Shown here: piece after piece, positions 1 to 37,013 of the stretch
Position numbering within the stretch: position 1 is the stretch's first letter
How the letters are laid out: each line of letters opens with the position of its first letter
Origin: a virus
Lineage: Duplodnaviria; Heunggongvirae; Uroviricota; Caudoviricetes
Length of the DNA: 37,546 nt
Reading direction: 5' to 3' (one strand)
IMG/VR virus record: IMGVR_UViG_2565956620_000003
Position numbers and translations under genes: made by a program
Notes under the pieces: model-generated
Told to the model about the DNA's origin: nothing
Databases searched by the model: none
Seen by the model: the letters and a program-made list of their open reading frames with translations, nothing else

Positions 1-131
1 GTGAGATATTTATGGGAAGAACTGGGTCAAAATGGGAAGAGACTAGGAGGAATATGCAATAACCTTACAGTATGTGAAAATCAGACCGGCCCGAAAAAAA
101 AACAGAACTCGCGCCAGCCTGATTGCAGATA

Positions 132-521
132 TTACTCTTTTTTCTCCGTATCTGCATCGGGTTCATCAGCAAATAGCTTGCCCTGCATCCGATCCAGTTC
201 TTCTTTTCTTACCCGCTTAACCACGCTGTAGACCCACTGAAGCGAAACACCAAATTTGCGGGCCAGTTCGTGGTGGTTGCGTCCGTTAAACTCCCTGAAG
301 ATTTCCCGGTCGCGCTGACTGACCTTCCATACCATGCCCATCGGGAAATAAACGTTTTGCCCGCCCCAGACCTGCATCATTCGGTTCGCGACGGCCTGAC
401 CAATCTGGTCGGCAACTTCGGGCTCAATATCAATAATCTCGCGAACGGTCTCAGAGGTATGCTGTGCCAGTTCCACCAGGAGTTCCGGCCCCTTACTTCG
501 AAACTGATTCAGGTCGCTCAT
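132..521 (-). CDS. mor: Mor/C-family transcriptional activator (middle operon regulator)
   Basis: 129 aa; motif GGQNVYFP followed by a C-terminal HTH-like segment (FNGRNHHELARKFGVS..VY..VKR) typical of the Mu Mor/C family; sits directly after a GemA-like gene as in Mu; 5' end overlaps the upstream gene by 29 bp. Confidence 0.75.
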   Translation of the reverse strand: MSDLNQFRSKGPELLVELAQHTSETVREIIDIEPEVADQIGQAVANRMMQVWGGQNVYFPMGMVWKVSQRDREIFREFNGRNHHELARKFGVSLQWVYSVVKRVRKEELDRMQGKLFADEPDADTEKKE

Positions 522-942
522 GTTTGACTCCCGCAGCTCTGCGCTGCCACTTCTTCAGTTTCTCAATAACACTGCTTGCCTGTTCAGTACTGAGCCAGCG
601 CAGGGCGCTGATGCCCGTTTCCCGCTTGATCCACCTCGCTAATGCATTTTCTGAACGGTCACGAACAATGCCGGCAGCAGCCATTTCAAGCCATAGCGCA
701 CGAATTTTCCTGGACTGCGGATGGTTATCAAGCGGTAAACCGGAGCTGGCTTTTCTGGCTGGTTTAACGCGAAAGCCTTTCTTTTTCATGGATTCCAGCA
801 CGCAGTTTAGTTGTGTGGTATCCATTCCTTTGGTTGAGGCTTTACCGGTCAGCCCCTGTAACATCTGGCGGTAGGTGTCTTCATCCATACCCAGTTCATT
901 ACGGGCAATATGGATAAGCTGTATCAGGCGTTTTTTCTGCAT
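493..942 (-). CDS. gemA: GemA / Mu gp16-like early protein
   Basis: 149 aa; N-terminus MQKKRLIQLIHIARNELGMDEDTYRQML..GKAS resembles the Mu gp16/GemA family; position immediately upstream of mor. Confidence 0.65.
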   Translation of the reverse strand: MQKKRLIQLIHIARNELGMDEDTYRQMLQGLTGKASTKGMDTTQLNCVLESMKKKGFRVKPARKASSGLPLDNHPQSRKIRALWLEMAAAGIVRDRSENALARWIKRETGISALRWLSTEQASSVIEKLKKWQRRAAGVKHERPESVSK

Positions 943-943
943 A

Positions 944-1150
944 TCATCTCCTTTTTTTCAGTCTGTCGGCAACAATGTCGGTTGCAGCTGGCAGGGTGAC
1001 TGGCCAGAACAACATGACGGCGGTCATGTACAGGATGTAATGCGCGGTGTCGTAGTGCCTGCCATAGCCCAGGGAACGATGAAGTCTTGCGCTGCATGAT
1101 CCTGCGTACATATACCAGAAAAGAAAACAGACAATGGTTTCAGTAGTCAT
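944..1150 (-). CDS. Small hydrophobic protein, hypothetical
   Basis: ATG at 1150 follows the stop of the upstream gene by a few bases; predicted product MTTETIVCFLFWYMYAGSC... is hydrophobic. The longer track ORF 944..1306 overlaps the upstream gene and is less likely. Confidence 0.35.
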   Translation of the reverse strand: MTTETIVCFLFWYMYAGSCSARLHRSLGYGRHYDTAHYILYMTAVMLFWPVTLPAATDIVADRLKKRR

Positions 1151-1370
1151 TCTGAATACCTCCCCATTCGATATGAATATTACGGGCAGCAATGACAGGG
1201 TCGTTATTCCACCATGCACCTGACATGTATTTTTCAACCTGTTCGCGTCCGGCAATAACACCAATTGTGATCCCCGGCCTGACGTTCTTAAAAAAGGCGC
1301 GGGCAAAAAGGTATCTGGCAGATATTCGGCAGGCTTTTAATTTCCGGCTTTTACCTGATAGCGTAATCAT
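1140..1370 (-). CDS. Hypothetical early protein (76 aa)
   Basis: ORF in the same orientation as the early operon; start overlaps the upstream stop by 4 bp (1367-1370). Confidence 0.4.
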   Translation of the reverse strand: MITLSGKSRKLKACRISARYLFARAFFKNVRPGITIGVIAGREQVEKYMSGAWWNNDPVIAARNIHIEWGGIQNDY

Positions 1371-2050
1371 CTGGCCTCCAGTTTCTGTTGTTCCTGCCCA
1401 CTGACCGGGCGGTGCAGTCTGACGTTCTGCCCTTCACGAAACCCCGCATAGCGCGAGGCGTCGCCATTGCGGCTTCTTCCCGGTTTACGCGCCCTGGTGG
1501 TTTGCGTCTGCGGGTATTTATGTTCCAGCCACTGCTGCATCAGTTCACGCTCATCATCGGTCAGGGCAAAGGACTGTATTTCACTGATAACGGCCAGCAC
1601 CCAGCCTTCGGCAAACTGGTCTCCACGGCTGGTGCGGGTGGCGGTTTTTATTCTTTTGTTCTGTGCACTGATATACTGCTGACGCGCCTTTTTCAGCTGA
1701 CGGGCCAGCACTTCCCAGGTGTATGCAGCCAGTGCCGCACGTTCCCGGTTGCCGTAGAACCCCACAGACGGATGCGTGCCGGGGTGAATGATGGAGTTAA
1801 CACCAAATACCTCGCGGATGATGTTCATCAGGCCCAGCATGTAGCGCGGTGGACGGAGACTGCCTGTCGGCCAGTAGTGACTGATGGTTTCATCAATATC
1901 ACTCATAGCAATGTCGGAATGTGTGATGCCGTGAACATCCATCAGTTTACGGGCTCGGCGCAGTGCCAGAGCGGCCTCGTGCGGGTTGCCGGATGCGGCC
2001 AGCGCCAGCAACTTTTTCAGTTTCTCAATGTGTTTATTCTGGTCTGTCAT
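1367..2050 (-). CDS. Hypothetical early protein, DUF2786-like N-terminus
   Basis: Start chosen at ATG 2050, which forms an ATGA overlap with the stop of the upstream gene (2047); N-terminal KLLALAASGNPHEAALALRRARKLM resembles a prophage-associated domain of unknown function. Confidence 0.55.
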   Translation of the reverse strand: MTDQNKHIEKLKKLLALAASGNPHEAALALRRARKLMDVHGITHSDIAMSDIDETISHYWPTGSLRPPRYMLGLMNIIREVFGVNSIIHPGTHPSVGFYGNRERAALAAYTWEVLARQLKKARQQYISAQNKRIKTATRTSRGDQFAEGWVLAVISEIQSFALTDDERELMQQWLEHKYPQTQTTRARKPGRSRNGDASRYAGFREGQNVRLHRPVSGQEQQKLEAR

Positions 2051-2262
2051 TGTTCTGTATCTCCGGTATTTTTCTGCCGTTTCCATGCCCGGACAGCGTC
2101 GGACAGCTCTTTCAGGCTGTATGCTGCTTTAAGCTTTTCCCATAACCACTGTGTTGTTATGTGCATCAGCAGGGCAGCCAGGGCTGCCCCCGCACTGAGG
2201 CATGTCGCCAGGCCAGTAAGAATCAGTGTCCATGCGGTGATTTCCCTGAGTATGTCAGCCAT
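2047..2262 (-). CDS. Small membrane protein, hypothetical
   Basis: 71 aa with one clear hydrophobic helix (WTLILTGLATCLSAGAALAALLM). Confidence 0.45.
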   Translation of the reverse strand: MADILREITAWTLILTGLATCLSAGAALAALLMHITTQWLWEKLKAAYSLKELSDAVRAWKRQKNTGDTEQ

Positions 2263-35852: not shown

Positions 35853-35863
35853 ACCAACGTTTC
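35838..35863 (-). other. Candidate recombination crossover site B
   Basis: Plus-strand sequence CCTTCCCCCAAACCAACGTTTCTATG at the 5' end of cassette 2. Confidence 0.5.
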
Positions 35864-36291
35864 TATGCCGCCCTTACGATGTAATTAAACGCAATGTTAC
35901 GGGGACGAATGGTCACATAATTAACCCCATCGCCTCGCGAAGGACCTGCAAATGAAAAACGGGAGAATCCAGGTTGGTTGTCAACGATTTGGTCATAGTT
36001 ATTGATTGAATGACCAGACCCAATGTCAAAATTACCTGCGTAATGAGAAAAACTTGTACCATCCTGCCGTGAAAGCAGATCGCGCCCTGTATCCACTTTT
36101 CGCCCGTCGTCCCATCCACGGATAAACTCACCGCGTAAATCGGGAAGACGGAGGGTCGGGTAGACTCTGGCCAGAACAGGATATTGTTCTTTTGTAAAGG
36201 CGCGCCCGTCGCACTTTAACCAGCCTGCTGGCGGTGTGGCAGTGGGCCACGGAACAGGTACACCAACGGGCAGCGCCGAGCCTTCCCCCAA
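35863..36291 (-). CDS. Silent alternative tail-fibre C-terminal cassette 3 (no start codon of its own)
   Basis: Begins with TTG at the crossover-like site; first ~200 bp about 97% identical (inverted) to 34262-34460 of the fibre gene; ends with RPRNIAFNYIVRAA; an in-frame TGA lies just upstream of the site on the minus strand. Confidence 0.7.
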   Translation of the reverse strand: MGEGSALPVGVPVPWPTATPPAGWLKCDGRAFTKEQYPVLARVYPTLRLPDLRGEFIRGWDDGRKVDTGRDLLSRQDGTSFSHYAGNFDIGSGHSINNYDQIVDNQPGFSRFSFAGPSRGDGVNYVTIRPRNIAFNYIVRAA

Positions 36292-36308
36292 ACCAACGTT
36301 TATCTCTC
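36283..36308 (-). other. Candidate recombination crossover site C
   Basis: Plus-strand sequence CCTTCCCCCAAACCAACGTTTATCTC at the 5' end of cassette 3, about 55 bp upstream of the invertase gene. Confidence 0.5.
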
Positions 36309-36362
36309 AAATCCTCCCCACATTATCTCAGTACTTTAACCACTCAAAAGGGAGTATTTTTA

Positions 36363-36935
36363 ATGCTGATTGGCTACATACGTGTGTCAACAAATGACCA
36401 AAACACAGATTTGCAACGCAATGCATTAATGTGCGCAGGATGTGAACAGATTTTTGAGGACAAAATGAGCGGAACCAAGTCGGAACGACCAGGCCTGAAA
36501 CGCGCTTTAAAGTGCCTTAAAAGAGGGGATACATTGGTGGTCTGGAAGCTGGATCGGTTGGGTAGAAGAATGAAACACCTCATTGCTCTCACAGAAGAGC
36601 TACGCGCAAAAGGTGTCAATTTTCGCAGTCTGACGGATTCAATCGATACCAGCACTCCGATGGGAAGGTTCTTTTTTCATATGATGGGTGCACTGGCAGA
36701 AATGGAGCGTGAACTGATAGTTGAGCGCACGCTGGCTGGACTGGCTGCTGCGCGAGCACAAGGAAGAGTTGGAGGACGTCGCCCGAAACTGACGAAGGAG
36801 CAGCATGAGCAGATCGCAAGATTGCTCCAGAAAGGGTATGACAGAAAGCGGCTGGCAATTATCTATGATATTGGACTGTCAACGATCTACCGCTATCACC
36901 CTGTTGGGACTGTCATAACGCAACCTGAAATGTAA
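36363..36935 (+). CDS. Serine DNA invertase (Gin/Hin/Cin/Pin family)
   Basis: 190 aa from ATG 36363; N-terminus MLIGYIRVSTNDQNTDLQ with the catalytic serine in RVST; C-terminal HTH; ribosome-binding site AAGGGAG upstream. The track ORF start at 36234 is an unsupported upstream extension. Confidence 0.9.
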   Translation: MLIGYIRVSTNDQNTDLQRNALMCAGCEQIFEDKMSGTKSERPGLKRALKCLKRGDTLVVWKLDRLGRRMKHLIALTEELRAKGVNFRSLTDSIDTSTPMGRFFFHMMGALAEMERELIVERTLAGLAAARAQGRVGGRRPKLTKEQHEQIARLLQKGYDRKRLAIIYDIGLSTIYRYHPVGTVITQPEM

Positions 36936-36967
36936 TTCTTTTTCAAATAATGAAACGCCGCGTGGAT

Positions 36968-37013
36968 GCCATTTATCGCACAAGATAGAGTGCATTTATC
37001 GCGCGGCGCATCA
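36968..37013 (+). other. Prophage right end with two direct transposase-binding-like repeats
   Basis: CATTTATCGC at 36970-36979 and 36994-37003; terminal sequence GCATTTATCGCGCGGCGCATCA resembles the Mu right end as recalled and ends in CA at 37013. Confidence 0.5.

Follow-up and report, generated by a model that had tools for sequence, protein, structure and literature searches.

A transposable prophage of the BcepMu lineage, identical to Phi2 and PhiKM, in the sufS gene of Escherichia coli

Introduction

The window examined here is a stretch of 37,546 nt of viral DNA (Caudoviricetes; IMG/VR record IMGVR_UViG_2565956620_000003), most of which, positions 1–37013, is occupied by a transposable prophage, with part of the host gene sufS lying beyond it. 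The prophage carries genes resembling those of phage Mu, but its early operon and its morphogenesis genes lie on opposite strands, which raises the question of whether it belongs with Mu or with BcepMu. The 2009 definition of the BcepMu-like viruses rests on the very features at issue here, including two divergent clusters in which the regulators and the transposase are on the bottom strand and the lysis and morphogenesis genes are on the top strand (PMC2771037). An initial annotation, made from the sequence alone, had favored the BcepMu lineage in an enterobacterial host. Comparison of genes, termini and insertion sites makes that assignment secure, and identifies the element as the same as prophage Phi2 of EC958, the reference strain of E. 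coli ST131, and as the phage PhiKM.

Results

Gene organization and relationship to BcepMu and Mu

The early genes, from the Mor gene to a small helix-turn-helix (HTH) gene, span 132–8733 on the minus strand, and the lysis, head and tail genes span 11708–35384 on the plus strand. Open reading frames (ORFs) and the PGAP annotation of an identical copy both bear out this arrangement, as the initial annotation had described it; it is the divergent two-cluster organization of BcepMu-like phages (PMC2771037), whereas Mu carries its genes from ner to gin on a single strand.

The 55 proteins of the window were compared with the genomes of BcepMu (NC_005882) and Mu (NC_000929) using tblastn. For 35 of the 55 genes, BcepMu homologues were found in collinear order, covering almost the whole element, with identities of 68% for the transposase, 59% for its partner ATPase, 54% for Mor, 44% for GemA, 67% and 63% for the terminase proteins TerS and TerL, 59% for the portal and 76% for the sheath. 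Ten matched Mu: Gam (62%), Gin (76%), TerL (49%), F (47%), GemA (36%), Mor (30%), G (29%), the portal (27%), a baseplate J protein and a short stretch of the fiber. The genes on which this comparison turns are the following.

132–521, minus strand: Mor-family middle/late transcription activator (Pfam Mor, 1.3e-43; homologue of BcepMu gp01 and Mu Mor)
493–942, minus strand: GemA, Mu gp16 family (Pfam GemA, 8e-41)
3144–3674, minus strand: Gam, a host-nuclease inhibitor protecting DNA ends (Pfam Phage_Mu_Gam, 1e-40)
3974–5140, minus strand: AAA+ ATPase for transposition, functionally the counterpart of MuB (Pfam AAA_22; homologue of BcepMu gp08; phrog_296, "DNA transposition protein")
5151–6920, minus strand: DDE transposase of the rve type, 589 aa (Pfam rve only; homologue of BcepMu gp09)
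11708–13435, plus strand: lysis cassette of holin, SLT transglycosylase and Rz-like protein (Pfam Holin_2-3 and SLT; 52%, 61% and 32% to BcepMu gp21–23)
14069–18965, plus strand: Mu-type packaging and head genes, namely gp27-like TerS, TerL, Mu portal, Mu F and Mu G (44–67% to BcepMu, 27–49% to Mu)
19180–22774, plus strand: protease/scaffold, major capsid, DUF2190, gp36, gp37 and a small protein (PHROGs 976 and 1005; Pfam; 44–53% to BcepMu gp32–38)
22764–33436, plus strand: P2-type contractile tail and baseplate (FI sheath, FII tube, E chaperone, tape measure, U, X, D, V, W, J, I)

Matches to Mu families in Pfam were obtained for Gam, GemA, Mor, gp27, Portal_Mu, Mu_F and Gp36, and the view that Gam, GemA, Mor and the head genes are Mu-like was thus upheld. 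The tail genes had also been called Mu-like, and here the initial annotation was mistaken: they belong to P2 families in Pfam, as in BcepMu, and share 31–76% identity with BcepMu gp39–51.

Besides the divergent blocks, the element shares with BcepMu and phiE255, both of the genus Bcepmuvirus, an rve transposase with an AAA+ partner, homologues of gp10, gp12 and gp16, a holin/SLT/Rz lysis cassette, a Mu-type terminase and head, a P2-type tail, and TGA... ends with paired GATAWWT motifs. Several of these features form part of the published definition: a transposase of the rve (Tn552/IS1604-like) family rather than of the MuA type, lysis genes for a holin, an endolysin and Rz ahead of TerL and head genes related to those of Mu and a tail cassette related to that of P2, and terminal TG...CA, which is TGAT...ATCA in the element (PMC2771037). 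Lysogeny genes, the equivalents of gp16 and gp17, lie at the interface of the two clusters as a gp16 homologue (46% identity) and an HTH_3 repressor.

The element differs from BcepMu in carrying a Mu-like Gam, for which tblastn found no counterpart in BcepMu, a Gin invertase with an invertible fiber segment, and a Dam-like methylase; BcepMu is recorded as being without a fiber inversion system (PMC2771037). Conversely, BcepMu gp03–07 (SSB, HU, DUF3164) and the gp53 acyltransferase have no counterpart in the element, and the G+C content is 62.9% in BcepMu versus 54.9% in the element. With Mu, the element has in common the character of a transposable myovirus, TG...CA ends, Gam, GemA, Mor, the terminase, portal, F and G head genes, and a Gin-driven fiber switch; peculiar to Mu are the Pfam families of MuA and MuB, the Mu-type tail and com/mom. 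No Mom was found in the element, which has a D12-class methylase instead.

Transposase and ATPase

Four Pfam domains make up MuA (HTH_Tnp_Mu_1, HTH_Tnp_Mu_2, DDE_2 and Mu-transpos_C), and the transposase of the window has none of them. The description of a 589-aa rve-type enzyme lacking a MuA-like architecture consequently holds at the level of Pfam and BLAST. Its partner, proposed earlier to be a MuB/TniB-like ATPase, matched AAA_22 only, with a Walker A motif (GESGAGKS) at residue 151, whereas MuB has Phage-MuB_C in addition to AAA_22. Neither protein gave a match to the Mu genome in tblastn.

When the transposase was compared with a phage collection by tblastn, 69 records matched, among them PhiKM, Klebsiella phage KP12 and Escherichia phage Phi06_2974 B at 93% identity, phiE255, BcepMu and a Ralstonia phage at approximately 68%, and the Pseudomonas JBD25/JD18/H72 group at 57%. 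Mu and D108 were absent from these 69 records, and a 19-sequence profile of the transposase family retrieved nothing when aligned to MuA using hhalign; a grouping of the transposase with MuA, which the initial annotation had named as contrary evidence, was thus not seen. Homologues at 70–93% identity occur in Salmonella, Klebsiella, Serratia, Yersinia, Citrobacter, Dickeya and other genera.

Invariant acidic residues of the transposase, D160, D254 and E290, are spaced D-93-D-35-E and align with the catalytic motifs of retroviral integrases. The catalytic triad of MuA is D269, D336 and E392, that is, DD(55)E, in contrast to DD(35)E in the window transposase. An AlphaFold2 model built from the 19-sequence alignment had a mean pLDDT of 61.7, with the catalytic core below 50, and in a Foldseek comparison with the PDB this low-confidence model matched TnsB, IstA and retroviral integrases only weakly (TM 0.1–0.2). 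Similarly, phmmer against PDB sequences gave marginal matches, of the transposase to integrases and of the ATPase to generic P-loop proteins.

Termini and insertion sites

The limits of the prophage were determined by comparing the empty site of E. coli K-12 with the occupied locus of ST131. The prophage is 37,045 bp long, starts with TGATTAGACTTGAGATAAATG... and ends with ...GCGCGGCGCATCA, and is flanked by a 6-bp duplication, TTCTTC. Across five independent insertions in E. coli, the termini (TGAT...ATCA) were identical and each insertion had a perfect 6-bp target duplication; in the four further genomes in which both junctions were compared, the duplications were CCGTGC, CGTGAC, TTTAAT and CTTCTC. 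The genes flanking these four insertions were unrelated (hxpB/yniB, gcd, yehQ and the nagE side), and two of the four split genes that PGAP marks as pseudogenes. Near-identical copies occupy at least six different chromosomal sites, and no tyrosine integrase was found in the PGAP annotation of an identical copy. Site-specific integration, the other finding that would have spoken against the BcepMu assignment, is excluded by the 6-bp duplications at unrelated sites, which indicate transposition.

In the window, the two ends of the prophage and the host flank are as follows.

1–37013: the transposable prophage, 37,045 bp in all, of which the leftmost 32 bp (TGATTAGACTTGAGATAAATGACAGGGAATAA) lie outside the window
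5–11, plus strand: the second of the left-end GATAWWT motifs (37–43 in prophage numbering), a candidate inner transposase-binding site as judged from the comparison with the BcepMu ends
36971–37013, plus strand: right end, with ATTTATC motifs at 36971–36977 and 36994–37000 and the terminal sequence ...GCGCATCA
37014–37546, plus strand: host DNA, namely the last 533 nt of sufS (from nt 689 of 1221)

Of the limits first proposed, 1–37013, the right boundary proved exact, but the left end lies 32 bp before position 1; since the window opens 32 bp inside the prophage, the left junction is out of view. The prophage splits sufS after nt 688 of 1221, and the first 6 nt of the flank, CCACCG, are the expected target duplication, whose second copy is likewise outside the window. 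The flank is 100% identical to E. coli sufS, as had been suspected from its appearance, and the host is therefore E. coli. Because no complete E. coli genome among 5426 has this junction, the insertion in sufS looks private and is probably a recent transposition. It should inactivate SufS.

At both ends, the element and BcepMu have a common layout, with TGA(T/A) at positions 1–4 and GATAWWT at 14–20 and 37–43. To judge from these positions, the GATAWWT pairs may be paired transposase-binding sites.

The ST131 duplication, TTCTTC, corresponds to codons 2–3 of ycaL (4960–5000 and 42010–42030 in region L002 of ST131 strain 81009), and 37 kb consequently separate the body of ycaL from its ATG and promoter. 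PGAP has re-annotated ycaL in ST131 with a start inside the phage end.

Taken together with the gene comparisons, the ends bear on the possibility that the element is a true Mu-type prophage (Muvirus) whose early region was inverted by rearrangement. Such an origin would agree with the identities of Gam (62%), Gin (76%), TerL (49%) and Mu F (47%) to Mu, with the Mu-family Pfam matches of GemA, Mor, gp27, the portal and gp36, and with a Gin invertase and invertible tail-fiber (G) segment, a Muvirus trait whose inversion is seen here between genomes. However, the traits that set Muvirus apart, a MuA-type transposase with MuB, co-directional operons and a 5-bp duplication, are lacking: the transposase and ATPase are related by BLAST and Pfam to BcepMu gp09 and gp08 and not to MuA and MuB, the tail is of the P2 type, the ends match those of BcepMu, and com/mom are absent. 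The target duplication of Mu is 5 bp, as against 6 bp for the element. We consider an inverted Muvirus extremely unlikely.

Invertible tail-fiber segment

The right part of the prophage contains a fiber-switching module.

33439–35384, plus strand: tail fiber (Phage_fiber_2 repeats and Collar; Pfam) and assembly protein, in the currently expressed orientation
34241–36308: invertible host-range segment, with 26-bp crossover sites at 34241–34266 (plus) and 36283–36308 (minus) and a third at 35844–35869 (minus)
35391–35852 and 35863–36291, minus strand: two alternative Collar-domain fiber C-termini (Pfam Collar)
36363–36935, plus strand: Gin-family serine DNA invertase (Pfam Resolvase and HTH_7; 76% to Mu Gin)

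The crossover sites are carried on three copies of an approximately 217-bp repeat, and the outer two are exactly those published for EC958 Phi2 (PMC4134206). The stretch 34250–35435 is inverted in two other genomes. A third crossover site and a second silent Collar C-terminus are present within 35391–35869, so that three fiber variants are on offer rather than two; a single assembly-protein gene (34770–35384) is found beside them. Tandem repeats of approximately 168-bp units (Phage_fiber_2) occupy 33644–34091 of the fiber gene and are present in more copies in another region, L015.

A serine recombinase gene adjoining the right end, together with a P2-type tail module, could also be read as the mark of a P2-like phage that integrates site-specifically by means of this recombinase. 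We give this virtually no credence, because the recombinase is 76% identical to Mu Gin and is flanked by the published fiber-inversion sites, and because the insertion sites are unrelated and bear 6-bp duplications instead of an att core, with no tyrosine integrase.

Identity and distribution in E. coli

Using the first 25 kb of the window as a megablast query, we found 100% identity to Escherichia phage PhiKM (PQ738613), which originates from uropathogenic E. coli; its GenBank record, a permuted and partial genome with a sequencing gap, is filed under the genus Bcepmuvirus. Among 5426 complete E. coli genomes, 647 gave matches, and in 385, EC958 among them, the identity reached at least 99%. 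Prophage Phi2 of EC958 and other ST131 chromosomes showed 100% nucleotide identity to the element, and positions 1–37013 of the window correspond to 5001–42013 of the strain 81009 region with a single mismatch, the sequences diverging from window position 37014. The window element is thus the same as Phi2 and PhiKM, and the chromosomal site alone differs, sufS here and the ycaL start codon in ST131. The matches were distributed over 720 places, one of them on a plasmid, with up to three copies in some genomes. Insertions of ISEc23, ISEcp1 and ISEc62 interrupt many ST131 copies of the prophage.

The next closest phages, KP12 and Phi06_2974 B, shared approximately 86% nucleotide identity over approximately 71% of the same 25 kb and represent related species from other hosts or strains, with a transposase 93% identical. 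Enterobacterial relatives of BcepMu have a precedent in SalMu (Salmonella Typhi) and PhotoMu (Photorhabdus), which were named in 2004 (PMC3417384). In the E. coli literature, such prophages have already been called BcepMu or Bcepmuvirus, including those of ST131 wound isolates. A 36.8-kb BcepMu-like region published for a uropathogenic strain has a G+C content of 54.9%, equal to that of the element, and a BcepMu-like prophage with an inverted segment has been published for an avian strain. The element is therefore already known and is one of the commonest prophages in pandemic E. coli ST131; the novelty implied by the initial annotation was overstated, since GenBank already files the identical phage under Bcepmuvirus.

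This distribution bears on whether the element is a decayed, immobile remnant that kept a BcepMu-like layout but lost transposition and particle formation. The ycaL site common to most ST131 genomes, the insertion sequences in many copies, and a fiber gene marked as fragmented by PGAP in one genome would all suit a remnant. Nevertheless, all core genes are open in the window, near-identical copies with intact duplications occupy at least six sites, the sufS junction is unique to the source of the window, the identical sequence has been deposited as an isolated phage (PhiKM), and the invertible segment occurs in both orientations. A remnant is accordingly very unlikely.

Regulatory interface and remaining genes

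The junction of the two clusters and the region beside it contain the following features.

7253–8173, minus strand: DUF3102 early protein (homologue of BcepMu gp10, 39%)
8184–8492, minus strand: winged-HTH regulator (homologue of BcepMu gp12)
8545–8733, minus strand: first gene of the early operon, encoding a small HTH protein at the Cro/Ner position (homologue of BcepMu gp16; phrog_925)
8781–8809, minus strand: candidate early promoter (TTGATA, 17 nt, AATAAT; −35 at 8809–8804, −10 at 8786–8781)
8827–9183, plus strand: cI-type HTH_3 repressor (Pfam HTH_3 and Phage_CI_repr), divergent from the early operon
9300–10064, minus strand: orphan D12-class N6-adenine DNA methyltransferase, M.EcoMIV of EC958 (Pfam MethyltransfD12; PADLOC MTase_II)
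10255–11577: three genes of unknown function in cargo position, with no defense-system match

The first early gene had been called Ner-like. Its position and presumed role agree with that name, but its family does not: it scored 17.9 bits against HTH_35, the Ner family (cutoff 25), compared with 95.8 bits for Mu Ner, and the two fall in different PHROGs. The 94-bp gap between the divergent HTH genes contains the best sigma-70-like promoter of the region, on the minus strand, and a perfect 16-bp palindrome, GCTCATAATTATGAGC, is located inside its spacer at 8787–8802. From this placement, the palindrome may be the operator through which the repressor silences the early operon. The repressor had no BLAST match to BcepMu gp17, and a terminator scan detected a strong terminator-like hairpin at 9269–9293. 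The D12 methylase has been published as M.EcoMIV of prophage Phi2 (PMC4659465).

About a dozen small early and cargo genes (944–3046, 3702–3971, 6936–7253 and 10255–11577) have no BcepMu or Mu homologue. They include a variable early region of seven small genes, given below.

944–3046, minus strand: variable early region, seven small genes (DUF2786/DUF7168 protein at 1367–2050)

A 242-aa protein encoded at 10849–11577 matched solely a PHROG of unknown function. Among the early and cargo genes of unknown function, no defense system was matched, and PADLOC flagged only the methylase. Two features of the tail region are added for completeness. The tail chaperone gene (Phage_TAC_7) is overlapped by an ORF in another frame at 25254–25511 (window 25094–25511), an arrangement usual for a programmed frameshift product, as in P2 E/E′, and the tape-measure gene has tandem repeats of approximately 260 bp (92% identity) within its coding sequence at 27385–27937.

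Discussion

We are highly confident that the window holds a temperate, transposable myovirus that is intact, belongs to the BcepMu lineage and lives in E. coli, the same as Phi2 and PhiKM. This reading is carried by its genes and their homologies, by its termini, by 6-bp duplications found at several sites and by a fiber segment seen in both orientations, and the lineage proposed by the initial annotation was confirmed both by the 35 collinear genes and by a transposase and ATPase that match BcepMu and not Mu.

A life cycle can be proposed by analogy with Mu and BcepMu. The cI-type repressor (8827–9183) would face the divergent early operon, and derepression would lead to expression of the HTH protein in the Cro position, of the transposase (rve type, DD(35)E) together with its AAA+ partner, and of Gam, GemA and Mor. 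The transposase may recognize the paired GATAWWT motifs just within the TGAT...ATCA termini and, together with the ATPase, would insert the genome at essentially random targets, generating 6-bp duplications, while the phage would replicate by repeated transposition. Mor would then switch on the plus-strand lysis cassette, the Mu-type head genes with packaging presumably by the headful and with host DNA at the ends, and the P2-type tail genes. Finally, the Gin-type invertase would flip the approximately 2-kb segment, exchanging the C-terminus of the tail fiber and thereby changing the host range.

Several observations weigh against this reading or narrow it. PHROGs groups the window transposase with MuA (phrog_310) and the ATPase with MuB (phrog_296) by remote homology; the two pairs of proteins are probably related at a distance, as members of the DDE and AAA+ superfamilies, and with these PHROGs in common, "unrelated to MuA" is true solely at the Pfam and BLAST level. 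The ST131 prophage is fixed at ycaL in hundreds of genomes, which reflects vertical inheritance and is silent on present activity, and it is by analogy that we infer replicative transposition and variable host DNA at the packaged ends. Random host DNA on either side of the virion genome also belongs to the published definition of BcepMu-like phages (PMC2771037), and the support for it in the element is indirect, coming from the six or more unrelated insertion sites with their 6-bp duplications. Membership in the genus is a separate matter. The criterion of the ICTV for a genus is about 70% nucleotide identity across the genome. The first 25 kb gave no nucleotide match to BcepMu or phiE255 by megablast, the protein identities to BcepMu are 31–76%, and a similar E. 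coli prophage was reported at 69.7% identity over 25% coverage (PMC11610265). With no detectable nucleotide similarity to BcepMu, placement of the element in Bcepmuvirus in the strict sense appears doubtful.

It is conceivable, although we hold this tentatively and think it rather unlikely, that Phi2, PhiKM and KP12 form a distinct enterobacterial genus of the BcepMu lineage that acquired a Mu-derived Gam and Gin/G-segment and is still transposing in E. coli; the insertion in sufS would then be a recent jump, and the 6-bp duplication and GATAWWT pairs would define a transpososome geometry other than that of Mu. The single facts from which this reading is assembled were observed in the present comparison.

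As a discovery, the result carries little weight, for routine tools and GenBank already label the element BcepMu-like. The practical interest is modest and lies in a prophage that carries an orphan adenine methylase and switches its tail fibers. Its random insertion inactivates host genes, as with sufS in this case and, in other genomes, gcd, yehQ and the start codon of ycaL. The element also offers a model, based in E. coli, of the machinery with which BcepMu-type phages transpose without MuA.

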